A stretch of DNA of 64,000 nucleotides from an uncultured Pseudomonadota bacterium (GCA_963736005.1 CAVTNB010000001.1:96001-160000); one strand, 5' to 3'; shown: positions 4,356 to 37,342, numbered from the stretch's first letter. The notes: a model not told the origin generated them from the letters alone. Numbers and translations: made by a program.

Positions 4356-4499
4356 GCGTCTGGGTTCTAGAAAGCCGCGCGCATCCCCTGAAGAGCTGGG
4401 CATTTTGCAGGCTGGCGTAGCCATGGCGCGAATATGCCGCCCACGCGGTTCTCTGTGGGCCGCGGTCAATTATTTTACGCACTTAAGGCAAAGGAAATC

Positions 4500-4901
4500 A
4501 TGAGAAACAGAATCTACTTCGCTGCGCTGCCGCTCCTAGCGCTCGCGATTGTGCTCACGTTCACAATGCACTCACGTCCAGCTGTCGCGGCAATGAGTCC
4601 GATTTCAATCAAACAGTGCTTCATCATCCACAAGGCAATGAGCACGAATGCAGGCGGAACGCAGATTGTCTTTGTGAATCGCACCTCAAAGCCGGTGAAG
4701 CGGGTTACCTTCGCGGTGGGTTATCGCAACGCCGCGGAACACTTTCTTCGCAAAGTGACGGACATCGGCAACTTTGCCCCTGGCGTGGTGATCGATCACA
4801 AGTATTCGCTATACAGCGATGTCACGTATGCGGGCACGCAGCCAACGAGCTGCAGTGTCATAGCCGCGTGGTGGCAAGACGGCTCCAGCTGGACGCCGTA
4901 A
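4500..4901 (+). CDS. Hypothetical exported protein
   Basis: AAGGA RBS, signal peptide, two Cys, C-terminal DGSSW; followed by a terminator. Confidence 0.75.
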   Translation: MRNRIYFAALPLLALAIVLTFTMHSRPAVAAMSPISIKQCFIIHKAMSTNAGGTQIVFVNRTSKPVKRVTFAVGYRNAAEHFLRKVTDIGNFAPGVVIDHKYSLYSDVTYAGTQPTSCSVIAAWWQDGSSWTP

Positions 4902-4927
4902 GCTCACAGTATTTCCCAGCAGGAGGG

Positions 4928-4959
4928 AGCCGCCGGCGCATGGCCGGCGGCTTTGTTTT
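4928..4959 (+). terminator. Rho-independent terminator
   Basis: Stem AGCCGCCGGC/GCCGGCGGCT followed by a T-rich tract. Confidence 0.75.
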
Positions 4960-4984
4960 GACCCGCTTCTAATGAAGCGCATTC

Positions 4985-5010
4985 GTAGGGGGCGATTGGA
5001 AAATCGGCCC
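4985..5010 (+). repeat. GTAG-foot REP-like palindrome, class B
   Basis: GTAG-GGGGCGATT-ggaa-AATCGGCCC; near-identical copies at 26462, 30608 and 53539. Confidence 0.75.
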
Positions 5011-5072
5011 ACGTAACTAGCGGGACAATCACGGGACGTACCAGCACCGTGACTGTGTGGAAGGCCGCCTTG

Positions 5073-6362
5073 TTACGTCGGTAGTTTTAGCGCCGTGCAA
5101 ACCGCTTGAGAAACGTGCAGCTTGCAAAAGGCATTTAAGTTAGCCGCCAACTTACCAGCCCACCCCTCAAACGTGTGTCGAAACGTAAGGCCCGAGGACG
5201 GATTGCCGAGAGTTAAACCGCTCGAATTAGCTGCGAACGTCCCCAACGCGACATCATTCTGATAGGTGATGAAGCTGTTCAAGGCGTTGGGGGACGCTGA
5301 AGGATTCGGCGCGGGCATGGTGGCCTCATGAGCAGCGGAATTGGCTTCCAGAAGCGTTCCTGCCAACGCGAGTGGGAAGAACGACAGCGCCGTCGTTTTG
5401 TTGCCGTCTGAGATGTTATCCGACCACACCGTCGAGAGGTACGGAGGAGCGGCAGAGCTGCAATTGACAACTTGCGCAGTAAAATTCGCTTCGCTGCTAC
5501 CGTAGACGGTGACAACCGCGAACGTCCCATCAGCGGTAACGGTTGAACCATTGAGGACAATCGCTCCGAGCGTTCCATGCCCAGCCGGCGTACTCTGGCG
5601 CGCACCATACGGATTGTTGGGATCGTTCGGCACGTACGGATCATCGAGGCACTGCGCGCGAAAATCCTCGAGGTTCCAGGTCGACTCCGGTACCACCGCA
5701 ACGGGATGCTGCGAATCGCAGTCGCGGAGCGAAATTTGACTGCGCGAGCAAACGTCATGTTCCAGCCGCTGGGCAATTACAAAGAGCAAAAAGTAGGCAG
5801 GGTTGTCGACGGAAGATCCGGTGGCAGTGCTACCCGTCGCAGGCCCGGAGCCGCCTTTGCCTCCACCTCCACCTCCGCCAGCGCTCGTTGCACCGCCAGA
5901 TTTTGTCGTGCCCGCTGGAGGGCCAGCCGGCCCGGCTCCAATCGATAAGAGCACGTAAAACGTCGGCTCTTGCGTTGCGACAAGAGGGGCTGCCTGAGGC
6001 TCGAGGCCGAGGACGCCTTCGCAAAAATTCAGTTGCTGCCAAAGTGCCCGTGGATCTCGTTCCCCCGGGTTCGGCGTGCAGGCACTCTTTGCCGCCGCCT
6101 GGCCGGCGAGCGCGGCGCAGGTATTGAGGCGACCAACGAGCAGCCCTGCGAGATAGGACTTCACGCCTACGGGGAGCGATTCAGGTGAGCTCTTGTATGT
6201 GGGCGAGTTGAAATTATACACGGCGACGATGTCATTGAGATCGGCCGTGCCGCAGATTGAGGTCGACAGCGCTGGCGAGGGCCCTTGCGCGCCATCTGCA
6301 CTCGTTGTTAAACCGGTCATAAGGCTACACACGAGGACAAATGCAAAAACCTTCTGGGTCAT
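5073..6362 (-). CDS. Hypothetical exported Cys-rich protein with Gly/Ser/Thr linker
   Basis: 429-aa ORF, AGGAG RBS, signal peptide, 24 nt downstream of the patatin gene. Confidence 0.75.
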   Translation of the reverse strand: MTQKVFAFVLVCSLMTGLTTSADGAQGPSPALSTSICGTADLNDIVAVYNFNSPTYKSSPESLPVGVKSYLAGLLVGRLNTCAALAGQAAAKSACTPNPGERDPRALWQQLNFCEGVLGLEPQAAPLVATQEPTFYVLLSIGAGPAGPPAGTTKSGGATSAGGGGGGGKGGSGPATGSTATGSSVDNPAYFLLFVIAQRLEHDVCSRSQISLRDCDSQHPVAVVPESTWNLEDFRAQCLDDPYVPNDPNNPYGARQSTPAGHGTLGAIVLNGSTVTADGTFAVVTVYGSSEANFTAQVVNCSSAAPPYLSTVWSDNISDGNKTTALSFFPLALAGTLLEANSAAHEATMPAPNPSASPNALNSFITYQNDVALGTFAANSSGLTLGNPSSGLTFRHTFEGWAGKLAANLNAFCKLHVSQAVCTALKLPT

Positions 6363-6386
6363 AGAGCTCGCTCTCCTAGGCCTCCG

Positions 6387-7589
6387 CTATTGCGTCAACG
6401 AGAAGCCGGCGAAGTCGTCGGGTGACACGTAGAGATCGGCCGCGGTCTTCCCGACGAGCTGCAATTCGTCGAGATGCGCGACGTCAAACGGCTGAACCGC
6501 ATTCTCGTCGACGCCATTCAACCCTAGCCGATCTAAACCTTGCCGCGAAAGGTCCACGTTGTAGCGCACATAGGTAAAGAGTTTCTCAGCCAGCGGCGCC
6601 TGATTGCCGACAAGGTCGCCGATCTCGGAGTCCAGCGCATGTCCTGTGCGGGTCCTTCCAAAGACGCGGCAGAGCATGTCTTGTTCGACGCCAGCGGCCG
6701 AGATGAGTGCAGCTGGCAGCGATTGCAGATTATACAGCAAGTTCATCTCATTTGGTCGCAGCTGCAGGTTCGCGCTCTCGCTCAAGCCTGTTCCGACGGA
6801 GAGCAGCAACAAATTTTCTTCACCGGCCGGCCACTGAATTTCGTACGGTGGCAGCGTGGCCATAAGAAACAGGAGAAACGCCGGATTGTTGTAGACGGTG
6901 ACGCCGCCGTCGACGAAGACAAACTGCTGATCGCCCACGCGAATCGTTTCAGGTGGGAAGAACACAGGGGCCGCCGTGCTCGCGCGTACTAGCTGCCAAA
7001 GCGGCAGATTTAAGTTGCAGTCCTTCAGCTCGCGCTGGTTGTACTGCGCTTTTGGATTGTTCGACAGCGGCCACGGCGAATCGGTCGATGCGTTACGCAT
7101 GACGATGAGCAGTAGGGTGCGAAGCTTGTCTGTTCCAAGCCTTGCATCTTCATCGCCGTCGGTTCCGATCACCGCTTTAATCTCTGCTGCCAGCGCCTTT
7201 TGCGTGAACATTGAAGAAGATGCGAGCACGCCGAGCGTGCTTAAAAATTTGGTAATCAATGAGTTCGGACCGAACTTGCGGCCAAGGCGCAAGAAGACAT
7301 TCGCCGGATCGAACATCGTGTGCGCGCCGGTTAAATAGAATTCTCGAATCTGTTGAGTGGAGAACCCAAGCGACGTGAACGTGGCGATAATCGCCCCCGT
7401 GCTCGTGCCGCCGACGTAGTCAAAGTAATCCGCAAGCACCAGGTCGCTCCGGCCAAACCTTTGGCGTAGCAGCGTCTCCACGCGAAAAAGGAACTCCAAA
7501 GCGATGAGCCCTCGAATGCCGCCTCCGTCGATCGAAAGAAGTTTCTTGGGACCACGCTTGGTTATACGTTCTTCGAGGTGTGGTTGCAT
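6387..7589 (-). CDS. Patatin-like phospholipase
   Basis: DGGGIRG oxyanion motif, GTSTG nucleophile elbow, ASTAAP and DGG catalytic Asp all intact. Confidence 0.95.
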   Translation of the reverse strand: MQPHLEERITKRGPKKLLSIDGGGIRGLIALEFLFRVETLLRQRFGRSDLVLADYFDYVGGTSTGAIIATFTSLGFSTQQIREFYLTGAHTMFDPANVFLRLGRKFGPNSLITKFLSTLGVLASSSMFTQKALAAEIKAVIGTDGDEDARLGTDKLRTLLLIVMRNASTDSPWPLSNNPKAQYNQRELKDCNLNLPLWQLVRASTAAPVFFPPETIRVGDQQFVFVDGGVTVYNNPAFLLFLMATLPPYEIQWPAGEENLLLLSVGTGLSESANLQLRPNEMNLLYNLQSLPAALISAAGVEQDMLCRVFGRTRTGHALDSEIGDLVGNQAPLAEKLFTYVRYNVDLSRQGLDRLGLNGVDENAVQPFDVAHLDELQLVGKTAADLYVSPDDFAGFSLTQ

Positions 7590-7725
7590 TGTGAACGCCT
7601 TCGTGATTGCTTGCCGCGGCGTTCGCCGAAAAGGGAGAACTTCTTCCAGCAGGCGCCGCTGGCGGGTTTCGAAGCGCGCTCCGCGAAAGCACGCCGCCCA
7701 GGTGCTATCAAATGCTAGTCAAGGT

Positions 7726-9381
7726 ATGAAAGCGCCGTTCGATGGCTTACCGCTCGTCGTCGGCGTAACCGGCCACCGCGATCCGCCGGCAGAGGCGGAA
7801 GGTACGCTTCGCAAACGTTTCGGCGACGTTATCCAGGGGCTCAGCACGCAGTACCCGTCGATGCAGCTTCTCGTCCTGTCGGGACTTGCGGCCGGTGCGG
7901 ATATATTGGCGGCAGAAGAAGCGCTGGACCGCGGCATTGCCGTGCTCGGATGCTTGCCACTGCCTCAGTCCGATTACGAGAGGGACTTCACGCCTTCAGA
8001 ACTTTTTCGTTTTCGCTCCGTCTTACCCCGATGCTGGGATGTCATCATCGTCGGATCGTCTGAAAAACGCGAGCAAAACTACGTCGATGTCGCGGACTTT
8101 ATCGCCTACTATTGCCATGTACTCGTGGCATTTTGGGATGGACTCCAAGCACGCGGACCTGGCGGGACTGCCGAAGTTGTCCACCTTCGAAAAAGTGGTC
8201 TGCCGGGAATCGTCGGCGACGCACTCGTGGCGTACGCGCCCGACACCGGCCCCGTGTTCCAGATCGTCACTCCACGCACGGATCGTCCGCCCCCTGCCGA
8301 GTGTTTCTCAGTGCACGCAAGTTACCCAGAGCGCCCGGCTTGGAATACCAAAGCTAGAAAATCCGAGAAAGTTGCGGGCGAGCAAGCATTTGAGCACGCC
8401 ATCGCGGATCTTGAGCGCTTCAACCGGGACCTCGGGCGCGAGCCTATACCCGCTGGACCCAGCGCACTGGCTGCCTTGCGCGACCGAACGGATGCAGCGG
8501 CCAACAAGTTACAGCGGGATACGGTGCGGTCGCTGCAAAGCGTGTACATTGCAACTGGGCTGGCAGGCGCCGCGCAGTTGGTGCTGCCCACTGACGGCTC
8601 GTTCAATATTCCAAGTTGGGCTGGCGTCGTCGCTAAAGTCGGATTTCTGGCCATCGCCTTTGCCGTGTTGGCGGTCGCCAAGCGGAACGACTTCGAGAAC
8701 CGGTACCAAGATTATCGCGCAATCGCGGAAGCGCTGCGCGTGCAATACGCGTGGTGTTGCGCAGGTGTGCGCACTCGTTTGGTGGAGGCATCCTACCTTG
8801 AGATGCAGCAAAGTGAACTCGAGTGGATCCGAATGGCACTTCGAACTGCATATTTGATTACCGGCACCGGGACTGCTGACGCCGGCGGCTCAGTGGAACA
8901 TCCCGAATGTGCGGGCTGGATCGATGGTCAACTTGAGTACTACCAAAAATCTGGAAGGCGCGAAGAGGAGCGCTTGCGCCGAGCACGATGGCTCATGATT
9001 GGCGCCGCAGCAGGGGGCGGTGTCATCTCGGCCGTTGCCGCTGTGTTTGCTTGGATGCTCTCCCACAACTTGCTCCCGATCGAGGCGTCCCAATATACGC
9101 AAACGTTGCATATGACGGCGTATTGGGCGACCATGCCCTTCGCACTGGGGAGCTTGTTCGCTCTTCTGATTCGCTTTTACATCCAGCAGCGGGGCTTTGC
9201 TGAGAATGCCCGGCGCTACCAGCACATGTTCGTGGTGTTCGACGCGGCGAAGAGACTGCTGCGCGAACAGATTCGCGATCCGCAAAGAGTCCTCGAACAA
9301 CTGGGCCACGAGTCCCTCTCGGAGCACGCAGATTGGTTGATTCTGCACCGCGAACGTCCGCTCAGTTTCGTGCACACGTAA
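7726..9381 (+). CDS. SLOG-fold nucleotide-binding domain fused to two SLATT/DUF4231-like 2-TM modules
   Basis: N-terminal VGVTGHRD, LSGLAAGAD and WDG..GGTAEVV; then TM pair + YQDYRAIAEALR; then TM pair + EHADWLILHRERP. Confidence 0.75.
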   Translation: MKAPFDGLPLVVGVTGHRDPPAEAEGTLRKRFGDVIQGLSTQYPSMQLLVLSGLAAGADILAAEEALDRGIAVLGCLPLPQSDYERDFTPSELFRFRSVLPRCWDVIIVGSSEKREQNYVDVADFIAYYCHVLVAFWDGLQARGPGGTAEVVHLRKSGLPGIVGDALVAYAPDTGPVFQIVTPRTDRPPPAECFSVHASYPERPAWNTKARKSEKVAGEQAFEHAIADLERFNRDLGREPIPAGPSALAALRDRTDAAANKLQRDTVRSLQSVYIATGLAGAAQLVLPTDGSFNIPSWAGVVAKVGFLAIAFAVLAVAKRNDFENRYQDYRAIAEALRVQYAWCCAGVRTRLVEASYLEMQQSELEWIRMALRTAYLITGTGTADAGGSVEHPECAGWIDGQLEYYQKSGRREEERLRRARWLMIGAAAGGGVISAVAAVFAWMLSHNLLPIEASQYTQTLHMTAYWATMPFALGSLFALLIRFYIQQRGFAENARRYQHMFVVFDAAKRLLREQIRDPQRVLEQLGHESLSEHADWLILHRERPLSFVHT

Positions 9382-9465
9382 TCTGGGAGACACGACGAAG
9401 GCGCACTCCAGGACTCTCCCAAAACCCGATGGAATCAATAGTTGGGTGTAACATCATCCATAAAT

Positions 9466-10980
9466 ATGCCGTTTCAAATTTTCGTTTCCTACGCGCGCAA
9501 CGACGACTTACCGCCCTTAGACGGCGAGGGTAAAGGCTTTGTCACAACGCTTCTGAAGCATTTGGAGTTTCACTTCACATCCTTCGGTGAGCCCACCCCC
9601 ATCATTTGGCGCGATAGGCGAGCCATCGCTCGCAGCGAGCAATTCGACCCCATCATTGAAAAGGGTATCAACGACTCGCACTTACTACTCGTCGTGCTCT
9701 CCAACAACTGGATTCACCGCGAGTTTTGCCGCCGGGAACTCGAGCTTTTTTCCCAGCGCTGGCGCAGCGAGGGAGAAGGGGCTGTAAAACAGCGGATCAT
9801 TGTTGTGGGCAAGAATCACATCGAACCCTCTGCGCGGCCTCCTCTCTTGCAAGGCCAAGAGGGCTATCTGTACTACGCTCCGGACGAAGACAATCCAAGC
9901 CGATTTCGAGAGTTTTTTGTGCGCGGAAAAGCGCGCGAAGAGTTTCACGATCGAACGCAAGAGCTTGCCGAAGATATTTGGCGGCGGGCCTGCGAGCATG
10001 AACAGCTGCCGATGCCCGATTCGACGGGACCTTCGTGGACGCCGATTTCGTCGAGCGGGCGCAAAATTTATCTCGCCAAGCCTGCTGCTGACATGCGCCC
10101 GGCATACGCGCGCTTAGTTGACGAGCTGCGCCAACGCGGCTACATTGTCGAACCGAAACCGGACGCCGAGATGCCGTCTGACGCGAGCGCAAAGGAATTT
10201 ATTCGAGGCGCGCTCGCCGGCACAGAGCTATCGATTCACCTGCTTGGTGAAAAGGCTGGTTGGACCCCCGAGGACTGCGAACCGATTATTCCATTGCAGC
10301 TCAAGATGGCGTCCGATGCGCAGTCGCGGCGTATCATTTGGGCGCCGCGAATACTCGTAGAGGAGCACTCTCAAGCTGCCGAGGGCACCGCGCGCGATCC
10401 TTTTGCCGTTCTTGCCAAGTTCGATCGCAAGCTCGACAGCGACACAGTCGATGGCAGCGAGATCAGCGCCTTCGCGCAGTTCGTCATCCAGCATCTCGAC
10501 AAAAACGTGCCTCCAGTTCCGGACATAGAGGCCATAGAGCCGAATGCGCGCGTCTACCTCTATCACCGGCCGGAGGACACACACTATGCAGTTGAAATCG
10601 CAAAGGCGTTGGCGCAGCGCGGTATCCAGCCGGTCTTTCCGGCCTTTGAGGGCGATCCGGCCGAGCTCGCTGCGCTCCATCGCCAGGAACTCGCCGAGTG
10701 TGATGCCGTCGTATTGTGTTGGGCAAATGCCGCGGAGGTGTGGGTAAAAAGCCAGGCTCGCGAACTCAAAAACTGGCGCGATCTCGGTCGAGACAAAAGG
10801 TTTGCATGCCGCGGTTTGGTGGCTGGACCGCCTCCAGGCCAACGCAAGGACCTGCTTGTGCAACTCCCGCCGCGCAACGAGATCGACGTCGTGGTCGATC
10901 TCACCGGCTCCGAAACTCTCGTTCCTGAGGCGCTTGACCCTCTGATCCGCGCAACCCAACCGCCCAAGGACGCGGCCTAA
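9466..10980 (+). CDS. TIR-domain protein with two additional TIR/DUF4062-like folds
   Basis: IFVSYARND..IWRDR..LLVVLSNNW..FCRREL (TIR_2-like, Glu retained); KIYLA..SIHLLGEKAG; RVYLYH..CDAVVLCW. Confidence 0.85.
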   Translation: MPFQIFVSYARNDDLPPLDGEGKGFVTTLLKHLEFHFTSFGEPTPIIWRDRRAIARSEQFDPIIEKGINDSHLLLVVLSNNWIHREFCRRELELFSQRWRSEGEGAVKQRIIVVGKNHIEPSARPPLLQGQEGYLYYAPDEDNPSRFREFFVRGKAREEFHDRTQELAEDIWRRACEHEQLPMPDSTGPSWTPISSSGRKIYLAKPAADMRPAYARLVDELRQRGYIVEPKPDAEMPSDASAKEFIRGALAGTELSIHLLGEKAGWTPEDCEPIIPLQLKMASDAQSRRIIWAPRILVEEHSQAAEGTARDPFAVLAKFDRKLDSDTVDGSEISAFAQFVIQHLDKNVPPVPDIEAIEPNARVYLYHRPEDTHYAVEIAKALAQRGIQPVFPAFEGDPAELAALHRQELAECDAVVLCWANAAEVWVKSQARELKNWRDLGRDKRFACRGLVAGPPPGQRKDLLVQLPPRNEIDVVVDLTGSETLVPEALDPLIRATQPPKDAA

Positions 10981-10983
10981 GAA

Positions 10984-13900
10984 ATGCGCCCGTTCCCGGG
11001 GCTTCGACCCTTTGACTTTGAGGATCGCGATTTCTTCTTCGGCCGTGAAGACCAAATCTATTCGCTGTACCGCCTGTTAGAGCACAGTCGCTTCATTGCC
11101 GTGGTTGGCAGCTCGGGAAGTGGAAAGTCGTCACTGGTTCGTGCTGGACTCCTACCGGTCATTGATGAAGAAAGCCAGGGCCAAGGCGGGCGAAAGTGGC
11201 GCTTTGCTACATTGCATCCGGGGGACGCGCCAATAAAGGCGCTGGCTTCTGCCGTCACATCGCTTGCCCAGGACAGCGGTGAAGACTCCGAAATTCGCCA
11301 CGAGCGTACGCTCTTTACCCTACGGCGCTCGAGCTTCGGCCTCGCCAAAGCACTAGACGAAGTTCCAAACCTTACCGGTAAGTCTGTGTTGCTCGTCGTT
11401 GATCAGTTCGAGGAGCTCTTCAGGTATGCCACAAGCTCAGCGCGCGACCGGGTGGCAGGTGCACTGTGGCGCGACGAGGCCACGAACTTCGTTCAGCTTT
11501 TGCTGGAAGCAACGCGTAGCCGATCCAGTTCCGTATACCTGTTGATCACGATGCGCTCGGATTTCATCGGCGACTGCTCGCAATTCCATGGCTTGCCCGA
11601 GGCGGTGAGCGCAGCACAGTTTCTTGTCCCATCTTTGACTCGCGATCAGCGCGAAGACGTTATCCGCAAGCCGGTTGAAAAAGCTGGCGCTAGCATTGAT
11701 TCGACCCTCGTTGAGGTACTCTTGAACGACGCCGGCAGTGAGATGGACCAGCTTCCGGTCTTGCAGCATTGCCTAGCGCGCTTGTGGGATCGAGCCAAAG
11801 CTGCGAGTGATGATGACGCGAGCCGTCATCTCGGGCTTACCGAATATCGCGCTCTTGGGGGCATCTCGGGCGCACTCTCACAACATGCTGACGAGGTCAT
11901 GGCTTCCCTGCCTGGGCTCGAGCTCGCGGTTGAACAGATCTTCCGCGCGCTCAGCGAAATCGACAAGGAGGGTCGCGCTACTCGCAGAGCGTTGCCGTAC
12001 TCGAGCCTCCTGGCGGAAACTGGAGTTGGCAAGCGCGACCTGGTACGCGTGCTCGATCGTTTCCGTGCCGACGACTGTTCCTTTCTCTTGCCGTCTCTTT
12101 CGGCGGTGCCGCTGCTTCTCGGCGACACACGAGTTGATGTGGTTCACGAGGCGCTGTTGCGGCGCTGGGAGCGCATTAGCGCAGAGCAACCACACATTCT
12201 CGACGGACGGATGCAAACTGGATGGCTTGCTGCGGAAGCCGCCGATGGGAGATTTTACCGGGCACTGCTTGCGTTGCTGGAAACCGAATCTGCGTCCAAT
12301 GCGGTAACCCTGCCGCTCGACCAAGTCGAAGCTCGTTGGCACTGGTGGAAATCGCGTCCGCGAACGGAGGCTTGGGCCGAGCGCTACGGTGGCCGCCTCG
12401 CGAGCGTTGAGAAGTTGTTCCAAGACAGTCTGGCGGCACTCGCGGCCGATCGAGCGCGCCAAGAGGAAGCGGAACGCCGCGAACGCGAGCAAGAGCGTCG
12501 CAAGATCGAAGCGGAAGAAGCGGCAAAGCGCGAGCGGTTGCAGCATGAAGCTGAAGTCGATCGGATGCGTGCAGAATCTGCGCAACGGCTGACCCACCGC
12601 ACTCGGATCGCAGCCTTCGCAATGTCCCTTGTCGCTCTCCTCGCGGTAGTCTTGGCGGTGTTTGCTTGGCATCAAAAGCAAGTGGCCGATGAAAAGACTT
12701 TTATAGCGATCGCTGCAACCGGTAAAGCCGGTACAGCAACCAAAATCGCACAGCAACAAAAGAAGCGCGCTGACAGAGAGGCGAATATAGCAACCACAAA
12801 AGCACAGCTCGCTGCGGTGAGCGCAGAGCATGCAATGGTTGAAACCAAGCTTGCCAAGGCAGCCCTCGCAAAAGCTCAGCAACAAAGTGAGTTGGCAGTT
12901 CAGCAGCGGAAGCTTGCAGACCAGCAGCGCACGATTGCACAAAATCGGACGGAGCAGGCCCTCACTGCACGCTCCCAAGTTTTTCTGCAAAGAGGTCGAC
13001 AGGCGCTGCTCGACGGCGATGACAACGACGCAGCTCTTTTGCTCGCCGCCGCGTACAGCGGCGACTCGCAGAATCCGGTTTTGCAGCTCTTGCTACAGCA
13101 AGCACTTGAGAAGCTGCAGATCCGGCCCAAACCCATTAGCGCTCACGATGACCTCATCACGGCGCTGGCATTCAACCCCGATAAGAACGAAGACCAGATT
13201 GCGACGGCGAGCACCGACGGTTCGGTTAAACTTTGGAGCGGCACTGGTCGTTTGATCCACGAGTTTCGAGATCAGAAGGATCTCATCACCGCACTCGCTT
13301 TCGATCCTTCCGGGCGATACCTTGTCAGTGTTGGTCGCGATGGATCTGCTAAGCTCCACGATCTTGCGGGTGTGACCCTTGGCTCCGATCCGCCAGCAAT
13401 AGCCCTGCTTGATGTGAAGGACCAACTCGAAGGCCATGTCGGGCGCGTCAATTCGGTTATCTTTAGTCATAGCGGCACGCGCATCCTGACGTCGGGCAGC
13501 GACGGCATGGTCAAAGTCTGGAACGCGACGAACGGCAAAATGCTTACGGAGTGGAATGGAGCGGCACTAGGTGTTGGAATCAACGACGCGTCGTTTAGCC
13601 GGGACGATCGGATTGTCGCCGCATGCGCCGCCGACGGTTCGCTCACGGTTTGGAATTCGGATACGGGCGCTCAGATTGGGTCGACAACCGTGTCGTCGAA
13701 AAGCCCGCTTGTCCATATCGCCATCTCCCCCAGTGGGAAAAGCGTAGTTGCGGGAGCACTCGACGGGACGATTTTATCTTTCGATGTTGATACCAAGCAA
13801 TCGAACGAGTTGCACTATCAACATGCTGCAATTAACGCAGTTTCATTCGATATGACCGGCGAGCGCGTTGTGAGTGCGAGCGACGACGGAACGATCCTTC

Positions 13901-15336
13901 TCCTCGATGCCGCAAGCGGCGAGCCGCAGAAAATCTTGCCAGCAAGGCCGGGTACGCCCGCAGCGTTAACTGCCTCATTTAACCCTTCAAGTAACGGCTT
14001 TGAGACAACGTACGCGGACGGCTCCGTCAATTTCTGGACGCAGGAGGGCGATCCGATCGCTGTGTTGCGCACACCTACGGGCGAAGCGGTCGTCGCGAGT
14101 TTTTCTCCGGATGGGAGTGTCCTCGCGACTGGCAGCGAGCATGGCAAAGTGTACCTGTGGCAGTTGCCTGCTGCGATAGCGCGGAATGACTTCTCGCATC
14201 GCGGGGCGATCGATTCAATTGAGTTCGATCGCGCTGGCCGCAGCATGCTGACGGCCAGTCAAGATGGGACTGCAGCGCTGTGGCGAGTCGAGCGAGAGCT
14301 CCGGATGCAGCGCGTCTTGCCTCACACACCTGGTCAGGCATGGGTCGTTGCCGCGCACTTCAGCGCTGACAGCCGGCGCATCGTCACAGCCGGCGGCGAC
14401 GCTGTGAAAATCTGGGACACCACATCAGTAGGTGCGCGCCCATTGACTACTATTCGCACAACGGGGCCGCTGAAGCGTTTTACGCAGGCCGCCTTCGTCG
14501 GGCGAAGCCACAACGTCATTGTTGCGCAAACCGATACGAGCCTGACCTCTCCTGTTTACAAGACGAATGGGTGGACGGTGTGGTCGGGCGACGGCGTAAG
14601 ACTCTTCAAGGAACCTGGCTGGCTAACAGGTATCCGGGAATTGGACCTAACGGACGACGGTAATTTCGTGCTTTCGATCAGCGCAAATGGATATGCGTTC
14701 TTTTGTCCGACAGACGGCGCGGATAGTTGTCGGGAGTGGACGAGTGCATCGGAGGGCATTTCGGCCCGCGACCGCTTTGTGGTAGGCGGAGCTGGAGGAG
14801 GGATTCACGTTGTTGACCGGGATGGCAATGAGATAAGCCATTGGTCGAGCGACGACAAGCGCGTCTTGGCCTTCGCGATCTCCGCAGATGACAAATGGCT
14901 TGCATCCGGCGGTACGGGAGGGTCGCCTGGGGCGATATGGGATCTTGCACAACATGGACAGCGGCACGTGCCCCTAGGAGGCGGTGCGGGTGAAATTGAG
15001 TCGGCAGCATTCTCGCCAGGCAGCGGGGTCTTTCTTTTGGGGACTGCCTCCGATGGAACCGCAAAGCTTTGGGATCGTGAGTCCGGAAATCTCGTTGCCT
15101 CGGTGTCCGTTCCGGGATCGCGTGCGACCGCTGCAACTTTCACGCCCGATGGTTCTGCAGTCGTCATTGGTGCGCAAAATGGAGGCATCTTCATCTGGCC
15201 TATTCTTGGACGCCTTTCCAATCCACACGATGTTGCAAAGCGCGTGCTTCGTGAGACCGATCGTTCGGGTCTTTCCGATCCGTTGGTAAGCCAAGCAATC
15301 GGCGTCTTACAACAGGCAGCACGAAATGGACAGTAG
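10984..15336 (+). CDS. STAND (nSTAND1-like) NTPase, coiled coil, single TM helix, C-terminal WD40 repeats
   Basis: PFPGLRPF..FFGRE, Walker A GSSGSGKSSL, Walker B LLVVDQFEELF, MRSDF, LPVLQHCL, VHEALLRRW; TM at 12607-12669; many SxDGxxxxW WD40 repeats. Confidence 0.92.
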   Translation: MRPFPGLRPFDFEDRDFFFGREDQIYSLYRLLEHSRFIAVVGSSGSGKSSLVRAGLLPVIDEESQGQGGRKWRFATLHPGDAPIKALASAVTSLAQDSGEDSEIRHERTLFTLRRSSFGLAKALDEVPNLTGKSVLLVVDQFEELFRYATSSARDRVAGALWRDEATNFVQLLLEATRSRSSSVYLLITMRSDFIGDCSQFHGLPEAVSAAQFLVPSLTRDQREDVIRKPVEKAGASIDSTLVEVLLNDAGSEMDQLPVLQHCLARLWDRAKAASDDDASRHLGLTEYRALGGISGALSQHADEVMASLPGLELAVEQIFRALSEIDKEGRATRRALPYSSLLAETGVGKRDLVRVLDRFRADDCSFLLPSLSAVPLLLGDTRVDVVHEALLRRWERISAEQPHILDGRMQTGWLAAEAADGRFYRALLALLETESASNAVTLPLDQVEARWHWWKSRPRTEAWAERYGGRLASVEKLFQDSLAALAADRARQEEAERREREQERRKIEAEEAAKRERLQHEAEVDRMRAESAQRLTHRTRIAAFAMSLVALLAVVLAVFAWHQKQVADEKTFIAIAATGKAGTATKIAQQQKKRADREANIATTKAQLAAVSAEHAMVETKLAKAALAKAQQQSELAVQQRKLADQQRTIAQNRTEQALTARSQVFLQRGRQALLDGDDNDAALLLAAAYSGDSQNPVLQLLLQQALEKLQIRPKPISAHDDLITALAFNPDKNEDQIATASTDGSVKLWSGTGRLIHEFRDQKDLITALAFDPSGRYLVSVGRDGSAKLHDLAGVTLGSDPPAIALLDVKDQLEGHVGRVNSVIFSHSGTRILTSGSDGMVKVWNATNGKMLTEWNGAALGVGINDASFSRDDRIVAACAADGSLTVWNSDTGAQIGSTTVSSKSPLVHIAISPSGKSVVAGALDGTILSFDVDTKQSNELHYQHAAINAVSFDMTGERVVSASDDGTILLLDAASGEPQKILPARPGTPAALTASFNPSSNGFETTYADGSVNFWTQEGDPIAVLRTPTGEAVVASFSPDGSVLATGSEHGKVYLWQLPAAIARNDFSHRGAIDSIEFDRAGRSMLTASQDGTAALWRVERELRMQRVLPHTPGQAWVVAAHFSADSRRIVTAGGDAVKIWDTTSVGARPLTTIRTTGPLKRFTQAAFVGRSHNVIVAQTDTSLTSPVYKTNGWTVWSGDGVRLFKEPGWLTGIRELDLTDDGNFVLSISANGYAFFCPTDGADSCREWTSASEGISARDRFVVGGAGGGIHVVDRDGNEISHWSSDDKRVLAFAISADDKWLASGGTGGSPGAIWDLAQHGQRHVPLGGGAGEIESAAFSPGSGVFLLGTASDGTAKLWDRESGNLVASVSVPGSRATAATFTPDGSAVVIGAQNGGIFIWPILGRLSNPHDVAKRVLRETDRSGLSDPLVSQAIGVLQQAARNGQ

Positions 15337-17044
15337 GCAACTTCAGCTTGCGATCGTTCAAATTGTGTGTGCGCTGCTTGCATCTTTGCTGGTCGTCGCG
15401 CCCGCACGCGCAGAAAAAGTTTCCTTTGACGTCACAACGTATGGCGATTTTCACATCAACTTTATCGATATACGTACGCAAGGTGGCCTTGGTATGGGAA
15501 TATCGCGTGTCTACAATTCTCTCGATAACGACAGAACAGGCAGATTCGGCAATGGCTGGAGCGCGCAAGCTGAAACCTACGTGACCGTCGAAGCTGACGG
15601 TTCTATCGTCATTCACGAATATGGTGGCGGTGCCAACAACGCCTTCCAGCCGACAACGCTGAGCCGTCGCGCATCAACGGACATCCTGAATGAGATCATG
15701 CGAGCAGCCGAAGAAACTGGTAAATTTGGCAGCGATGCTGATAGATTGGCATATCGCCAGTGGCTGGAGACCGACGACAACGAAGAATACGCGTGGGAGA
15801 ATTTTGCTAGCCTCGGCTTAGTGAGGCAACAAGATCCGCCAATCGGAGAAACGTTTTTTAGCGGCCGCTTCGATACGGAGTTCGTTACTCGGGTTCCCGA
15901 AGGTTATCAGCGGGAAATGAAATATACCGGCGGGGTCTTATTTCAGGCCTTTAATTTTGGGGGGCGGCTTACTCGCTACTGGGATACGAATCACAATTTT
16001 ATCGCCTTAAGCTACGGACAAGATGGTAACATTCAGGAAGCATTGGACAACGAAGGCGACCGATTCGCGTTTTCGACTAAAAACGGTCTCGTCGCTCGCG
16101 TGAACGATCCTCCTGACCACTTGGTGCTCTATGACTACAAGACCTCGAATGTTCCCTATAGCGGTTACGACCTCACATCGGTGACCGTGGATGGCAAGAA
16201 GACGCGTTATGACTACGATCGAAACGACAGAATCATCGCCATCTGGTATCCTGATAGCACGTCGATGCACATTACCTACGATCAAACCGGTAAGGCAACG
16301 AGCGTGAAAGATACAGACGGTACTATGACTACCTACAGTTACACGACCCGCAGAACTCAAATGATCGACGTCTCTACTTTCGAGGAAGACATACACAAGT
16401 CGAACGGCGAGATCCACCGCGATACATTCCAGTCGTTTTATGACCCTCCCGATTACTACAAGGATAAAGAAATCGAAACGGATGACGGAGTGGTGGTAAA
16501 AACAACAACCTATAATTCTAATGGTGATGAATTAACGAGCACAACAGCAAAAGGCAGCACTGAGTACGGATATGATTCGCTAGATCGCGAGATACTTGAA
16601 AAGGAGCCGACGGGCAGGACGCTCACATGGCAGTATGATCCTGCCACCGGCAGTGTCTCGGTTACCAACGAAACGGATAAGAATTCCGTTCTCACCGAAC
16701 ACTTTGAATATGACCCTCGAGGCAACCTCGCGCGGGCCTACGACAACGATGGACATGATTTTACCATCAACCATGATGAGCATGGGCGAATCGCCTCTGT
16801 AAGCGGCACGCTCCATCTGAGCTTTCAGTATCCCAATGGTCGCGCGCCAAATCCGACCACTGTGGCGCTCGATGGAGTTGATTCGGTGGGCATTTCATAT
16901 CTCCCAAACGGTGACGTAGAGAAAGCGCAGAGTCTTGGAGGCGCTGTCGTCGTCGATAAGGTCAGAGTAGCGCTCAAAACCGTGGATGACCTCATTTCAG
17001 ATGCCGGCTTCGACGTAGTCACGTTGCCCGCGACTAGCAAATAA
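15326..17044 (+). CDS. Exported YD/RHS-repeat protein (DUF6531-like N-terminus) without toxin tip
   Basis: Signal peptide ending ARA, RVYNS..GRFGNGW motif, repeated YxYD units; overlaps STAND stop by 11 nt. Confidence 0.85.
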   Translation: MDSRQLQLAIVQIVCALLASLLVVAPARAEKVSFDVTTYGDFHINFIDIRTQGGLGMGISRVYNSLDNDRTGRFGNGWSAQAETYVTVEADGSIVIHEYGGGANNAFQPTTLSRRASTDILNEIMRAAEETGKFGSDADRLAYRQWLETDDNEEYAWENFASLGLVRQQDPPIGETFFSGRFDTEFVTRVPEGYQREMKYTGGVLFQAFNFGGRLTRYWDTNHNFIALSYGQDGNIQEALDNEGDRFAFSTKNGLVARVNDPPDHLVLYDYKTSNVPYSGYDLTSVTVDGKKTRYDYDRNDRIIAIWYPDSTSMHITYDQTGKATSVKDTDGTMTTYSYTTRRTQMIDVSTFEEDIHKSNGEIHRDTFQSFYDPPDYYKDKEIETDDGVVVKTTTYNSNGDELTSTTAKGSTEYGYDSLDREILEKEPTGRTLTWQYDPATGSVSVTNETDKNSVLTEHFEYDPRGNLARAYDNDGHDFTINHDEHGRIASVSGTLHLSFQYPNGRAPNPTTVALDGVDSVGISYLPNGDVEKAQSLGGAVVVDKVRVALKTVDDLISDAGFDVVTLPATSK

Positions 17045-17122
17045 CGCCGACGCCTCAGCCCAGCCTTATTTCCCCGTAAAGGAGGCGTTCGTGAAGTTTT
17101 TGATTGGCGTAAGTCAGGCCTC

Positions 17123-19489
17123 GTGAACGCGTGTCGCCGCTGGTCTTGGGTCGTCTTTTCGTTCATGCTTTGCGTGACCGCAACAAGCGTTGCACTGGCA
17201 GCCCCTGGTACCCAGTTGAGCGTGATTGTCATCGATGCATCGAACAAACCCGTTTCGAACGCAGTACTGGAACTGACGCTGCTGTCGCACGTATCCGGCG
17301 AGCGTGAGGCACAGATTCAACGGGTTGGATGCGATCGTGATGGCCGGTGCATCGCAGACAACTTAACACCTGCGAACTACGCCGTTCGGATATTGTACGA
17401 CGGCAACGCAGCATCGTTGAAATACCCGATATCGTTGTCCTCCGCACGTCAAAATCTTGTGATTCGCATAATTGGCGCAAGCGCAGCGGAAGTTGTTTCT
17501 TTGGGCGTTGTGCGCGTCGCGCCAACCGGCGGGCTCTCAACCGGGTCGGCGCCCAGTGTCGAGTTGAACTCGCAGTCGCTTGCTCGGCGAGGGGAGCTCA
17601 ATGTCGCGAACGCCCTCGCAGCCGTTCCTGGTGTGACGCTGAACCGTCCAAACGGAGGCTCATCAGCGCTGCCGGTGAGCGTGATGATTCGAGGAGACGA
17701 TCCTAAGGAGGCAGTCGTTGAACTCGATGGTAACCCTATCAACAGCGGAAACAGCGGGGATTTCGATCTTTCGTTGCTCGATCCAGCGGCTTTTCAAAGC
17801 GTGCAGATCGTCTATGGCTTAGCCCCCGCGTCCTTAGTGGGTGCCAATACCGAGGGTGGCACCGTCAACTTTCAAACGCTGCAGCCAACGCTGACTCCAC
17901 ATGGGTTGTTGAGCTACTCGAATGGCAGCTTCGTAACCAATAACTATACTCTTGCGGACACGGGCACGGCCGATCATTTTGGGTACGCCGTTGAGCTGCA
18001 GAGTTTCCATCAACAGGGCGAAGTGAGTTCCTTTCCCATTCTAAACACGGCCACTGGCGCGCAGCAAAATCTCGGCAGCGGAATCTCGGGCTCAAATGCA
18101 CTTGCAAAGTTGACGGATGACTTGCCGCACGACGGCGTCGTTCAAGTTTCGGTTCTAACGAGTGGATACGATGAAGATATTTCCGCTGCACTAAGCAGCC
18201 CGCTGAGTCCGTTTGACTCAAGTCCTGGCGCCCCGTTTACAAGCTATGCGGGCTCGGAACGGAACGACGTCAACACATTTTATTCTGGCAACGTGCGGCT
18301 GCCGCTCGGACCTCCGAGCGCCGACGGTGAAGTGCCGTCCTTCCTCACGGCAAGCTACATGTTTGCTAACTCTCGCCAGAACGTGAGTGGCCCCGCTTTA
18401 GGTCTAAGCGAATACCTGCTCAATACGACAGATCTGCTCAGGGACTACAGCCTGGAGTACGACCGGGTGCTCCCGGACGCGCAGCTAACCCTGGCTGCCA
18501 GGGCTCAAGGCGAGACGCTTACAGCTCCGGACGATTTCGGTTCCGGCGCGCCTTCGCAAGCGCAAACCAACCACACGTTTATTGCCCGATATACTTGGTC
18601 CGGCGGCAGCCGCCTTGAGTATACTGCCGTTGGCTATCTGAGCTTGTTTAGCACGTTCGGTTCGAGCTTCAATCCGAGAGGCGCGATTGTTTGGCGTCCG
18701 CATTGGCGAACCGTCATGCGCGCATCCGTCGGAACCGGATTTCAAGCACCGTTACTTTCAGAAAAAATCGTTCCGTCTCCGCTTCCACCGCCTGATGCTA
18801 ATGGGCTGATACAGGTGGGTAACCCCAACCTCACGGCGGACCATACTTTGGAATTTGAGTTAGACGGAGGTCAGATGTTGGGTTTAGGCCCGCACGCGGC
18901 AAGCGCTGAGCTTGATCTGTATCGCGTCGATCAAAAAGATGATGACATTCAATTCATTCCAACGGGTGCTTCGCCAACAAACCCCAAGCTAAGCTATCCG
19001 ATCAACATTGCCAATTCGATCTGGCAGGGACTAGCTCTCAGCTTGACGGCCCCTTTTGGACGCGGCTTTGAAACGAAGCTGTCCTACAACATCAATCAGG
19101 GATATCCGTTGACTTTGCCGCAGTCGCTAGCCGGCTCTGCCGGTAACCTCGTACCTTACGAGCAGTTTCAAGGAGTTCCGCTTCATCGCGCCGCGCTGTC
19201 TGTTGAAGAGTCTATTGGAAGATTCTCATGGCTCATTGGCTCGGCATACGAGGGGACCAACAACGACTTAAATCAGCCGGCGTTTGCCACCCTGCAGGCG
19301 AACGCTCAGTACACTTTCGGCCACACATCGCTAACCGTTGCTGGCACGAACTTGACCGGTGTTTACGACGGAAAGTTCACGTTGATAAATGCCGGAACTC
19401 CATATCCTGGTTTGATGGGTCCGCTTCTTGCGGACGCATATCAACTGCAAGGTCCAGCAATCACGGCAACAGTCGAGCAGCACTGGTAA
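17123..19489 (+). CDS. TonB-dependent receptor with N-terminal carboxypeptidase-regulatory-like domain; true start may be 17091
   Basis: Signal peptide, plug motifs (LAAVPGV, IRG, DGNPI, GGTVNF), GNPNLT, C-terminal aromatic residue. Confidence 0.88.
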   Translation: MNACRRWSWVVFSFMLCVTATSVALAAPGTQLSVIVIDASNKPVSNAVLELTLLSHVSGEREAQIQRVGCDRDGRCIADNLTPANYAVRILYDGNAASLKYPISLSSARQNLVIRIIGASAAEVVSLGVVRVAPTGGLSTGSAPSVELNSQSLARRGELNVANALAAVPGVTLNRPNGGSSALPVSVMIRGDDPKEAVVELDGNPINSGNSGDFDLSLLDPAAFQSVQIVYGLAPASLVGANTEGGTVNFQTLQPTLTPHGLLSYSNGSFVTNNYTLADTGTADHFGYAVELQSFHQQGEVSSFPILNTATGAQQNLGSGISGSNALAKLTDDLPHDGVVQVSVLTSGYDEDISAALSSPLSPFDSSPGAPFTSYAGSERNDVNTFYSGNVRLPLGPPSADGEVPSFLTASYMFANSRQNVSGPALGLSEYLLNTTDLLRDYSLEYDRVLPDAQLTLAARAQGETLTAPDDFGSGAPSQAQTNHTFIARYTWSGGSRLEYTAVGYLSLFSTFGSSFNPRGAIVWRPHWRTVMRASVGTGFQAPLLSEKIVPSPLPPPDANGLIQVGNPNLTADHTLEFELDGGQMLGLGPHAASAELDLYRVDQKDDDIQFIPTGASPTNPKLSYPINIANSIWQGLALSLTAPFGRGFETKLSYNINQGYPLTLPQSLAGSAGNLVPYEQFQGVPLHRAALSVEESIGRFSWLIGSAYEGTNNDLNQPAFATLQANAQYTFGHTSLTVAGTNLTGVYDGKFTLINAGTPYPGLMGPLLADAYQLQGPAITATVEQHW

Positions 19490-26431: not shown

Positions 26432-26487
26432 AGCGGACCTAAAGGTCCGCTGCTACATAGCGGGGCGATTTTCGGATTGCCCCCTAC
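26432..26487 (-). repeat. REP-like doublet (class B + class A)
   Basis: Reverse complements GTAGGGGGCAATCCGAAAATCGCCCC and GTAGCAGCGGACCTTTAGGTCCGCT. Confidence 0.85.
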
Positions 26488-26503
26488 GAATAACTACATC
26501 GAG

Positions 26504-27430
26504 ATGAAGAGAGTGGTCATTCCAGCGCGTGTCAACGAAGCGACCATGCGCTTCGGGCCTCGCGAAGTTTCGCTGACTAATCTTACCAAGGTCTTCTGGC
26601 CCGATCTTGGTATCACCAAGCGCGACTTGCTGCAATATTACGCCGACGTCGCCGCCGTCTTGCTACCCCATCTTCACGATCGGGCAATGGTGATGAAGCG
26701 CTATCCCAATGGCGCTTATAAAGAATTCTTCTTTATGAAGCGCGCGCCGTCGCCACGACCGCCATGGATCGAGATCTGTACCATAAAGCACTCCTCGGGC
26801 AACGTGATTGACTTTCCCATGATCCAGGACGTTCCATCACTGCTGTGGGTCATCAATTTGGGCTGTATCGATCTCAATCAGTGGTACGCCCGTTGCGACG
26901 ACGTTGACACGCCCGACTACGTTCATTTCGACCTCGATCCAGTCCCTGGCGCCACCTTCGAGAGGGTGCTCGAGAGCGCGCTCATCGTGCACAAGGCGCT
27001 CGACAAACTTGGGATGCCCAATGTTGTCAAGACAAGCGGCTCGCGCGGCATGCACGTTTACGTTCCGATCGTTCGCGGCCCCACACAAAAAGAGGTCTGG
27101 ACTTTCGCCAAAGCGTTCGCCCATAGCTTGGCGCCAGAGCATGCCAAACTGCTGACGGTTGTTTATAAGACCGCGAACCGTCCGCGCGGGCGCGTGCTCC
27201 TCGACTACAATCAAAACGCGTGGGGTCGCACCCTTGCATCGGTTTATTCGGTTCGGCCAAAGCGGCGCGCACCGGTGTCGACGCCGGTGACGTGGCGTGA
27301 AGTCGAGCGCGGCTTGCGCATCGAAGACTTTCGTATGGACAATGTGCCGGCGCGAGTCCGCAAGCTCGGCGATCTTTGGGAGTCGTTGCTCGCACGAAGC
27401 GGGCGGTTTGATTTGCGCAGGTACTTATGA
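26504..27430 (+). CDS. Stand-alone LigD polymerase (primase-polymerase) domain
   Basis: LTNLTKVFWP, KRYPNG, FDLDP, KTSGSRGMHVY, DYNQN, YSVR. Confidence 0.92.
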   Translation: MKRVVIPARVNEATMRFGPREVSLTNLTKVFWPDLGITKRDLLQYYADVAAVLLPHLHDRAMVMKRYPNGAYKEFFFMKRAPSPRPPWIEICTIKHSSGNVIDFPMIQDVPSLLWVINLGCIDLNQWYARCDDVDTPDYVHFDLDPVPGATFERVLESALIVHKALDKLGMPNVVKTSGSRGMHVYVPIVRGPTQKEVWTFAKAFAHSLAPEHAKLLTVVYKTANRPRGRVLLDYNQNAWGRTLASVYSVRPKRRAPVSTPVTWREVERGLRIEDFRMDNVPARVRKLGDLWESLLARSGRFDLRRYL

Positions 27431-35847: not shown

Positions 35848-36056
35848 AAATAGACTGGTCCGTCGAGTCCAGTGTACCGCCGTGAGCCCCGTCACGGCGA
35901 GAGCAAAACAGCAACGACAAGGCCGCCCAGCGCCTCAAGCGCCAGCCCCCGCGATGAGGCCGAAAGGCCCCGCTAGCTAGGGTCCTGGGAACCCAAGGCG
36001 ATTTGCCTCCCGCCTGCCGATAATTGTGTTACCTCCGTCACGGGAAAAGGAAGGCC

Positions 36057-36985: not shown

Positions 36986-37342
36986 ATGCCTTCCTTTCAG
37001 CTTTGGAAAGAGCGCGACGCTGCGTTGAAGTGGCATCTGTCCACGTCCATCGCGGAGTCGAAACAATTAAGCCGAATCGAGCGTCGCGTTCTCTTGTTCC
37101 TGTTTGCGTATTACGATCGAGAGCACGTCCGCATCGATTATCCTGGCCACCAAAGCTTTTCCACGCGACACCACATCCCGCCCGAGCAGTTGCAGAGCGC
37201 CCTGCTGTCGCTTGAGCGTGCAGGCTTTGTGATGCCGCAACCTTCGCCTTCGAACCTGTGCGCCTATCTCCCAAATGCCCTGCTCCTTGCCGAAGCCTAC
37301 GAACGAGCAAAGCAGGCGAGTCCAGAGCTTTTTATCGCTTAG
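36986..37342 (+). CDS. Hypothetical winged-helix-like protein
   Basis: LSRIERRVLLFL..LQSALLSLERAGFV pattern; RBS upstream. Confidence 0.6.
   Translation: MPSFQLWKERDAALKWHLSTSIAESKQLSRIERRVLLFLFAYYDREHVRIDYPGHQSFSTRHHIPPEQLQSALLSLERAGFVMPQPSPSNLCAYLPNALLLAEAYERAKQASPELFIA

Follow-up and report, generated by a model that had tools for sequence, protein, structure and literature searches.

We analysed a six-gene divergent locus at positions 5073-17044 of a 64-kb stretch of DNA (GCA_963736005.1 CAVTNB010000001.1:96001-160000, hereafter the window), which we consider a candidate membrane-associated TIR signalling system. The source is a metagenome-assembled genome (MAG) of an uncultured soil bacterium, 2.84 Mb in 6 contigs and 84% complete, whose relatives carry the labels Eremiobacterota or Vulcanimicrobiota, some of them inconsistent. 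All six genes are intact (Table 1). The two on the minus strand encode a patatin phospholipase and an exported protein (EXP); the four on the plus strand encode a SLOG-SLATT protein, a three-domain TIR protein (TIR3), an nSTAND1 NTPase with a transmembrane (TM) helix and WD40 repeats, and a YD-repeat protein, spaced by 84, 3 and -11 nt. A sequence-only reading had reported this layout with the same gaps, the intact patatin beside an exported protein, and the membrane STAND-WD40 protein with its YD partner, and all of this was borne out by the open reading frame (ORF), motif and domain analyses. The divergent spacer presumably carries the promoters of both directions; a consensus promoter and terminator scan of 4400-17600 found none in it and, overall, fewer sites than in shuffled sequence.

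Table 1. Genes and spacer of the locus, in window coordinates
Feature	Position	Strand	Evidence
EXP, 429 aa	5073..6362	-	signal-peptide-like N-terminus; no match in Pfam, PADLOC or NCBIfam
Patatin, 400 aa	6387..7589	-	PF01734 9.1e-24; catalytic motifs intact
Divergent intergenic region, 136 nt	7590..7725	.	between patatin and SLOG-SLATT start codons
SLOG-(SLATT)2, 551 aa	7726..9381	+	DUF4231 2.1e-06; SLOG fold predicted from AF2 model
TIR3, 504 aa, cytosolic, three domains	9466..10980	+	TIR_2 1.1e-14
nSTAND1-TM-WD40, 1450 aa	10984..15336	+	nSTAND1 1.9e-88; WD40 models
YD/RHS-repeat protein, 572 aa	15326..17044	+	RHS_repeat 5.8e-15; DUF6531 3.9e-09

The nSTAND1 domain (PF20703) covers residues 3-399 of the NTPase, with Walker A GSGKS (K48) and Walker B VVDQFEE (D140). 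The module starts at residue 3, and neither an effector domain fused to its N-terminus nor an adaptor domain was detected. WD40 (7.5e-56) and many beta-propeller models matched residues 675-1395, and the repeats run from about 690 to 1450. Between the NTPase and the repeats lies a strongly hydrophobic TM helix, residues 542-560 (nt 12607-12663). Of 43 homologues whose C-terminus is long enough, 38 have a hydrophobic helix after the NTPase; the set includes the window's own protein and the duplicated pairs L011/L064 and L042/L076 (L numbers denote the loci compared), and in the remaining five the helix was just under the scoring threshold. The 15 residues before the helix hold 5.3 Lys and Arg on average, versus 2.4 in those after it, with more before than after in 35 of the 38. 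Considering the positive-inside rule and an N-terminal NTPase without signal peptide, the WD40 repeats, or the TPRs that replace them in alphaproteobacterial relatives, are predicted to be extracytoplasmic and thus to share a compartment with the YD protein and EXP. This outward orientation was not among the points of the sequence-only reading and is proposed here. In bacteria and eukaryotes alike, the known role of NLR-like STAND proteins is that of a cytosolic sensor. We found no TM helix after the NTPase described for nSTAND1 in the portions of the literature searched, and regard it as a newly recognised feature.

The first 11 nt of the YD gene lie within the 3' end of the STAND gene, over its stop codon, and the YD product has a signal-peptide-like N-terminus (…LLVVAPARA/EK). 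Besides the domains of Table 1, RHS_core was matched at 46.6 bits against a cut-off of 2000. Pfam revealed no toxin tip and a motif search no DPxGL, and an ordinary Rhs toxin was rejected for want of the toxin tip. A YD gene was found directly 3' of every WD40-type STAND gene of the phylum examined with enough downstream DNA (L009-L015, L060, L062-L064, L066, L086, L087); in L042/L076 it comes after a 2233-aa STAND ORF. The pair is kept where TIR3 identity is as low as 33% (L060) as well as in the rearranged loci L086 and L087, and the WD40-type STAND appears to be translationally coupled to a secreted YD protein in this phylum. Among the 53 TIR3 loci compared below, those of TPR type contain no YD gene.

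TIR3 starts at ATG 9466, where homologues of 98% coverage (503-507 aa) also begin; the 84-nt gap to SLOG-SLATT holds if this start is right. Its AlphaFold2 (AF2) model (pLDDT 81.1) contains three alpha/beta domains, D1 (residues 1-177), D2 (197-349) and D3 (358-500). D1, which carries the TIR_2 match, was closest in fold to the TIR domains of MyD88 and RPP1 (Z 13.0), followed by SARM1, TIR-1 and bacterial TIRs (Z 11-12). All 19 sequences compared have its Glu91, which lines up with the Glu of the CLDEL motif in plant TIRs, known as the catalytic residue; Glu91 is the putative catalytic residue of TIR3. D2 matched the CMP hydrolase MilB (Z 11.4), RCL (10.9), the TIR domain of TIR-STING (10.9), ThsB (10.6) and deoxyribosyltransferases (10.3-10.4), which would put it on the TIR/DRHyd (nucleoside-deoxyribosyltransferase-like) side of the fold assemblage to which TIR belongs. 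D3 matched only generic flavodoxin-like domains (CheY-like, B12-binding) at Z of about 10. Profile-profile comparison of the three domains by hhalign gave no significant similarity (probabilities 4.9, 0.6 and 0.1). The name "triple TIR" used in the sequence-only reading therefore holds only in part: D1 alone is a demonstrable TIR, D2 is TIR/deoxyribosyltransferase-like by fold, and D3 is flavodoxin-like; a strand-start motif read by eye is shared among the domains. The PADLOC profile of ThsB matched TIR3 only at 0.0041.

In the SLOG-SLATT protein, a SLOG domain (about residues 8-200, with GVTGHRD at 13 and PGGTAE at 145) precedes a helical membrane region (about residues 215-548) with two SLATT-type hairpins. 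The longest ORF starts at 7504; this start was rejected, as it would overlap the patatin gene. Because of this overlap, and because the homologues are also 551 aa, translation probably starts at ATG 7726. DUF4231, which we take to belong to the SLATT clan, scored 28.5 bits (Pfam cut-off 24.7), and some homologues contain PF18181 or PF18184 according to precomputed annotation. The AF2 model, made with 24 homologues (pLDDT 84.4, pTM 0.81), consists of an N-terminal Rossmann-like domain and then long helical hairpins. Through Foldseek, the N-terminal domain was matched to YpsA (E 6.3e-05, TMt 0.67), then to DprA, ShosA, Moco carrier protein, LOG and PpnN; by its modelled fold it is a member of the SLOG assemblage. 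The SLOG and SLATT definitions reportedly come from Burroughs et al. in 2015 (NAR). Both motifs are conserved in the 24 homologues: G16 does not vary, and conservation of H17 and R18 is at least 90%. PADLOC-DB 2.0 (2023) yielded no ThsA match for this protein, only ShosA at 0.0039. With SLOG recognised by fold and the SLATT part probable from DUF4231, the SLOG-SLATT assignment made earlier is kept, now with the start at 7726. Of 401 genomes sampled from the phylum, 118 contained the family, three unpublished genomes included.

The patatin keeps the oxyanion motif DGGGIRG at 21, GTSTG with Ser63 and VDGGV with Asp227. It matched the PADLOC profile of a CBASS phospholipase effector (PDLC00758) at 4.5e-35, and NCBIfam CBASS_lipase (CapV) at 92 bits, for which the cut-off is 200. 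The EXP gene lies 24 nt 3' of the patatin stop codon on the same strand. Its product has, besides the signal-peptide-like N-terminus (MTQKVFAFVLVCSLMTGLTTSA/DG), a Gly-rich linker; there was no usable ESM Atlas match, and no Pfam family in the 11 relatives scanned. The EXP family is small: among 1.84 billion representative clusters, 32 were matched at E<=1e-3. EXP adjoins patatin in nine related loci (L009, L010, L011, L013, L014, L062-L065), and weak partial matches (33-36%) were found near SLOG-patatin pairs in L073, L074 and L077. EXP may be a lineage-specific accessory of the patatin/SLOG-SLATT pair.

Gene neighbourhoods were compared in two sets, one of 53 loci found in GTDB species genomes with an 8-sequence TIR3 alignment, the other of 40 loci from 39 genomes anchored on SLOG-SLATT. 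A match to the STAND N-terminus lies immediately 3' of TIR3 in 50 of the 53 loci; in two of the others the contig ends there (L047, L050), and the third has a partial TIR match (L061). A TIR3-STAND fusion in L051 was rejected, as the coordinates show that the long ORF is an out-of-frame overlap. The TIR3-nSTAND1 pair occurs both in Eremiobacterota-type MAGs and in many Alphaproteobacteria, Microvirga vignae among them. The complete six-gene block was found in L009, L010, L011, L013 and L014, whose TIR3 proteins are 82-98% identical, and its flanks differ among close relatives. A SLATT or SLOG protein is near TIR3-nSTAND1 in 17 of the 53 loci; some of these, in Alphaproteobacteria and in M. vignae, are SLATT proteins that lack SLOG.

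From the other side, 30 of the 40 SLOG-SLATT loci hold a TIR-domain protein: TIR3 with nSTAND1 in eight, a TIR fused to NB-ARC/AAA and/or TPR in 16, CHASE2-TIR in two and other types in four. TIR proteins were tallied by Pfam; a custom D1 profile was less sensitive and missed L067 and L068. Patatin is present in 14 of the 40, adjacent to SLOG-SLATT in 13 and 6 kb away in one. The patatin subfamily was found in 48 of the 401 sampled genomes, 45 of them published; in these 45, with the patatin and SLOG-SLATT genome tables compared by eye, it abuts SLOG-SLATT in 37, lies within 2.3-12.2 kb in four and is unlinked in four. Gene order varies. In the window type, patatin and SLOG-SLATT are divergent and SLOG-SLATT is followed by TIR3, STAND and YD. 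L086 has TIR3, STAND, YD and then SLOG; L087 has SLOG and patatin convergent with TIR3, STAND and YD; L074 has SLOG, patatin and a TIR-STAND-TPR gene; L072 has CHASE2-TIR, FecR-TPR, SLOG and patatin; and further orders surround SLOG-SLATT in L078 and L042. The neighbourhoods strongly suggest three couplings, TIR3 with nSTAND1, the WD40-type STAND with YD, and patatin with SLOG-SLATT. The coupling of the TIR/STAND sensor module to the SLOG-SLATT module appears to be frequent and to survive rearrangement, without being obligatory. The co-occurrence on which the sequence-only reading had made its circuit depend was thus found, in the counts of 50 of 53, 37 of 45 and 30 of 40.

Several of these loci carry other proteins. 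In L072 (4618-9028) and L080 (3325-8600), a CHASE2-TIR protein (membrane sensor with C-terminal TIR) and then a FecR-TPR gene stand beside SLOG-SLATT, with patatin adjacent to the group in L072 and 6 kb off in L080; the CHASE2-TIR protein could be another type of sensor that faces outwards and is connected to the SLOG-SLATT/patatin pair. In two alphaproteobacterial MAGs (L037 1-1350, minus strand; L040 5225-7684, minus strand), TIR3-nSTAND1 is flanked by a divergent gene whose product has a SLOG-like N-terminal domain fused to a TPR-S sensor repeat in place of the SLATT helices, and in L083 a MAP3K_TRAF_bd/TPR-S protein adjoins SLOG-SLATT. Trypsin-like peptidases lie directly 3' of SLOG-SLATT in L066 (10740-11876) and L069 (11163-12368), and one fused to TIR lies 3' of TIR3-nSTAND1 in M. 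vignae (L059 14346-15617); these peptidases may be an alternative effector. NHL/Vgb-lyase-type beta-propeller proteins occur beside TIR-STAND or TIR3 in L092 (6340-9039, between TIR-AAA-TPR and SLOG-SLATT), L012 (8777-9838, directly 5' of TIR3) and L100 (7697-8956), and may be further exported partners.

We compared the locus with known systems. Like Thoeris, as surveyed in a 2025 preprint (10.64898/2025.12.03.692087), it has a TIR enzyme gene beside that of an effector, here with a SLOG sensor domain and SLATT helices; in Thoeris both domain types serve to receive ADP-ribose derivatives produced by the TIR, and the cell is killed or arrested. Type I (ThsB TIR with ThsA SIR2-SLOG) signals to the SLOG domain, type VII pairs a TIR with the SLATT effector ThsH through cADPR, and type VIII has a CMP-hydrolase-like sensor, whose fold D2 of TIR3 resembles (10.64898/2025.12.03.692087). 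Type III combines several TIR proteins with a SLOG effector. The same survey lists 29 putative effector types, including phospholipases and TM proteins, and excluded the TIRs of Avs proteins (10.64898/2025.12.03.692087). In the present locus we found a TIR with a putative catalytic Glu and, adjacent, a predicted SLOG effector fused to a helical module. It differs from Thoeris in that SLOG and two SLATT hairpins are fused and patatin stands as second effector, that two Rossmann-like domains are added to the TIR protein, and that the TIR is obligatorily paired with a membrane-anchored STAND, whereas the Thoeris TIR senses the phage itself.

With nSTAND1/NLR-like, Avs and bNACHT systems the locus shares an effector (TIR), a STAND NTPase switch and a C-terminal repeat sensor, and TIR is listed among the effector domains of nSTAND1 conflict systems (Kaur, Iyer, Burroughs, Aravind 2021, eLife, PMC8195603). 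Here both Walker motifs are intact and C-terminal repeats are present, but no effector or adaptor is fused: the effector is a separate three-domain protein instead of an N-terminal fusion. The locus differs further in the conserved TM helix, predicted to put the repeats outside the cytoplasm, in the secreted YD partner of the WD40 form, and in a TIR linked to signal-receiving effectors and apparently not the terminal effector. Receptor-like single-TM NTPases are known as PCTM and as the TIR-ParA "receptor-like subtype" (10.64898/2026.10.19.760177), and TM-type bacterial NACHT proteins have been noted (10.1101/2022.07.19.500537). They resemble the locus in their cytoplasmic NTPase, one TM helix, variable periplasmic sensor (TPR etc.) and TIR, SLATT or caspase effectors, and are proposed to sense periplasmic perturbation such as a peptidoglycan breach; the NTPase here is nSTAND1, not ParA or NACHT. 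The WD40-YD pair, TIR3 and the SLOG-SLATT/patatin pair were not found in the parts of that literature consulted.

The patatin resembles CBASS phospholipase effectors and may be CapV-like; SLATT effectors also serve in CBASS. No CD-NTase or SMODS was found among the Pfam matches of the locus or of the window ORFs of at least 140 aa, and identity with CBASS was rejected for lack of a CD-NTase; unlike in CBASS, the signal generator here is likely the TIR. The YD protein shares DUF6531 and RHS/YD repeats with polymorphic Rhs/YD toxins, and differs in its length of only 572 aa, in having neither a C-terminal toxin domain nor DPxGL, and in its coupling to a WD40-type STAND. As far as the accessible literature goes, each part is already described or predicted: nSTAND1 with TIR, SLATT with TIR (PMC7159879, PMC9503650), Thoeris SLOG/SLATT, and receptor-like NTPases. 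In the literature searched, as far as it was accessible, we did not find the six-gene arrangement, although Table S1 and Figure 1C of 10.64898/2025.12.03.692087 may list SLOG-TM or phospholipase effectors; nor did we find there a three-domain TIR paired with a TM-anchored nSTAND1, the exported WD40-YD pair, or SLOG-(SLATT)2/patatin as a recurrent neighbour. The combination had earlier been said to match no named defence system. This stands for PADLOC-DB 2.0 and NCBIfam, which assigned none to the locus, and has to be qualified in that a TIR with SLATT is type VII Thoeris and phospholipases and TM proteins are putative Thoeris effectors.

We propose, at a probability of about 0.55, that the locus is a STAND-gated, membrane-associated TIR signalling system of Thoeris-like type, in which SLOG-SLATT and patatin are the effectors. 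An extracytoplasmic cue, most plausibly phage or another envelope attack, would be sensed by the WD40/YD pair and the signal would cross the membrane, leading to NTP-dependent oligomerisation of the NTPase. The oligomers would gather and activate TIR3, which would turn NAD+ into an ADP-ribose-derived messenger. Binding of this messenger by the SLOG domain would let the SLATT helices permeabilise the inner membrane, and patatin, switched on by the same messenger or by SLOG-SLATT, would degrade phospholipids, with growth arrest or death of the attacked cell as the outcome. More tentatively, and doubtfully, the locus may be a counterpart of the Toll-like-receptor pathway built from NLR parts, with an outward WD40/YD receptor, a single helix, STAND, TIR3, an NAD-derived messenger, and a SLATT pore plus patatin. 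The receptor would then notice an attacker at the envelope, either ahead of its entry or during it, and the NTPase would assemble TIR3, whose diffusible messenger would set off both lipid-directed effectors.

A number of observations weigh against the proposed system. Its modules are separable, as some loci hold one only. L012, with a TIR3 82% identical, has TIR3, STAND and YD, and SLOG, patatin and EXP are absent from the 9.9 kb upstream; L015 and L060 have TIR3, STAND and YD only. No SLATT or SLOG was found within about 10 kb in 36 of the 53 TIR3-nSTAND1 loci, so that TIR3 could there be an NAD+-depleting effector alone. Conversely, the close relative L065 has the EXP, patatin and SLOG genes and no TIR3 on its 11.8-kb contig, and no TIR was found in 10 of the 40 SLOG-SLATT loci by a non-exhaustive scan of greedily called ORFs. 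Since many of the loci belong to related MAGs from two lineages, they are not independent of one another, and the counts exaggerate their independence. SLATT_1 (22.6 bits) and SLATT_3 (17.8) remained under the Pfam cut-off of 26.3, and the NCBIfam SLATT_1 and SLATT_3 models likewise under theirs. The remainder of the window consists of housekeeping genes and is not a defence island. For the TIR3-STAND contact, TIR3 and STAND residues 1-480 were predicted as a complex, with a median score of 0.46 (runs 0.44, 0.46 and 0.50), the best of 3 controls giving 0.00; partner pLDDT was at least 80, and agreement of contacts between runs was at least 0%. Of 157 solved complexes 116 reach the pass mark, as do 2 of 215 mismatched pairs; passing scores of 0.60 or below came from only 18 of the 157 solved complexes, yet from both passing mismatches. 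The prediction weakly supports a contact, and no interface is reported. Of the earlier claim that the parts form one circuit, the co-occurrence of homologues stands and a fixed union of the modules does not (L012; 36 of 53; 10 of 40).

It is rather unlikely, we think, that two independent systems lie side by side, TIR3 with nSTAND1-WD40 and YD depleting NAD+, and SLOG-SLATT with patatin (and EXP) answering another nucleotide or cue. TIR3 would then be a terminal effector, as in TIR-bearing Avs or bNACHT-type proteins. The loci with TIR3, STAND and YD alone and the 36 without a SLATT or SLOG neighbour would fit this, as would L065, L071, L073 and L077, where SLOG and patatin occur and no TIR was found, and a TIR in an unverified operon may be an NAD+-depleting effector (10.64898/2025.12.03.692087). 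Against it, the TIR of the 30 SLOG-SLATT loci comes in at least five gene orders and as four kinds of TIR protein, which is not expected from chance juxtaposition; moreover a SLOG domain requires something to bind, and the scan of the neighbours found no further enzyme that makes nucleotides (cyclase, CD-NTase). An unlikely further alternative keeps a four-gene system and makes bystanders of YD and EXP, for instance a decayed Rhs toxin and an unrelated secreted protein. Neither has a domain tied to nucleotide signalling, EXP is largely confined to the closest clade and beyond it has weak, partial matches, and the TPR-type loci do without YD. However, YD overlaps the STAND stop and stays 3' of the WD40-type STAND in distant and rearranged loci, it is not an ordinary Rhs toxin since it has neither toxin tip nor DPxGL, and EXP is kept close behind patatin in nine related loci.

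The circuit could also be real and serve envelope surveillance or conflict with kin or competitors, not abortive-infection immunity, which we consider improbable. The periplasmic WD40/YD pair would then report damage to the wall or outer membrane or a contact-dependent attack, and the TIR messenger would alter how permeable the membrane is and how fast lipids turn over, or would cause altruistic death within a community. This would agree with the sensor domains predicted to be extracytoplasmic and partners predicted to be exported, with the housekeeping flanks, in which a Pfam scan of the window ORFs found no phage or mobile-element genes adjoining the locus, and with papers of the Aravind laboratory, which suggest for receptor-like NTPase systems that a breach of the peptidoglycan is sensed in the periplasm, and which connect such systems with multicellularity. 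Yet every characterised relative in the sources consulted (Thoeris TIRs, the SLATT and patatin effectors of CBASS and Thoeris, STAND NTPases) acts against phage, and the flanks of the six-gene block vary between close relatives, as is usual for variable defence loci.

Three further groups of genes were observed in the window. A TonB-dependent receptor-like protein (17123-19489, plus strand), with a Plug domain and a weak CarboxypepD_reg match, is encoded 78 nt 3' of the YD gene. It is missing at the equivalent position in the closest relative L014 and is therefore probably not part of the system; it indicates a diderm envelope. At 39412-42192 (plus strand) a 926-aa protein combines an adenylate/guanylate cyclase domain with an NB-ARC/AAA NTPase and TPRs, and several similar ORFs of 926-955 aa with weak nSTAND1 matches are found in the same genome (C1:78567, 1586828, 1968156 and 1970920), which looks like a paralogous family of cyclase-STAND-TPR proteins. 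Genes for non-homologous end joining lie at 26477-28473 (plus strand), 36024-36689 (plus strand) and 37332-38935 (minus strand) in two sets, one with the LigD primase-polymerase and an ATP-dependent ligase, the other with Ku, a second ligase and the LigD 3'-phosphoesterase, and a sugar-modification cluster sits between them.

The comparison points to an nSTAND1 subfamily that keeps a TM helix between switch and sensor, together with a separate TIR and often with membrane effectors. If the proposed STAND-gated system is real, it would join NLR-like sensing and Thoeris-type TIR second-messenger signalling, which are usually studied apart, and would offer an accessible example of extracytoplasmic immune sensing; it would also show how one signal drives two effectors, a pore and a lipase. 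If the Toll-like reading were true, STAND/NLR proteins could serve as receptors that span the membrane and respond to cues from outside the cell, and the TIR would be a signal generator and not the executioner. A candidate function is also provided for the SLOG-SLATT family, present in more than a quarter of the sampled genomes of the phylum, and for the orphan patatin subfamily.

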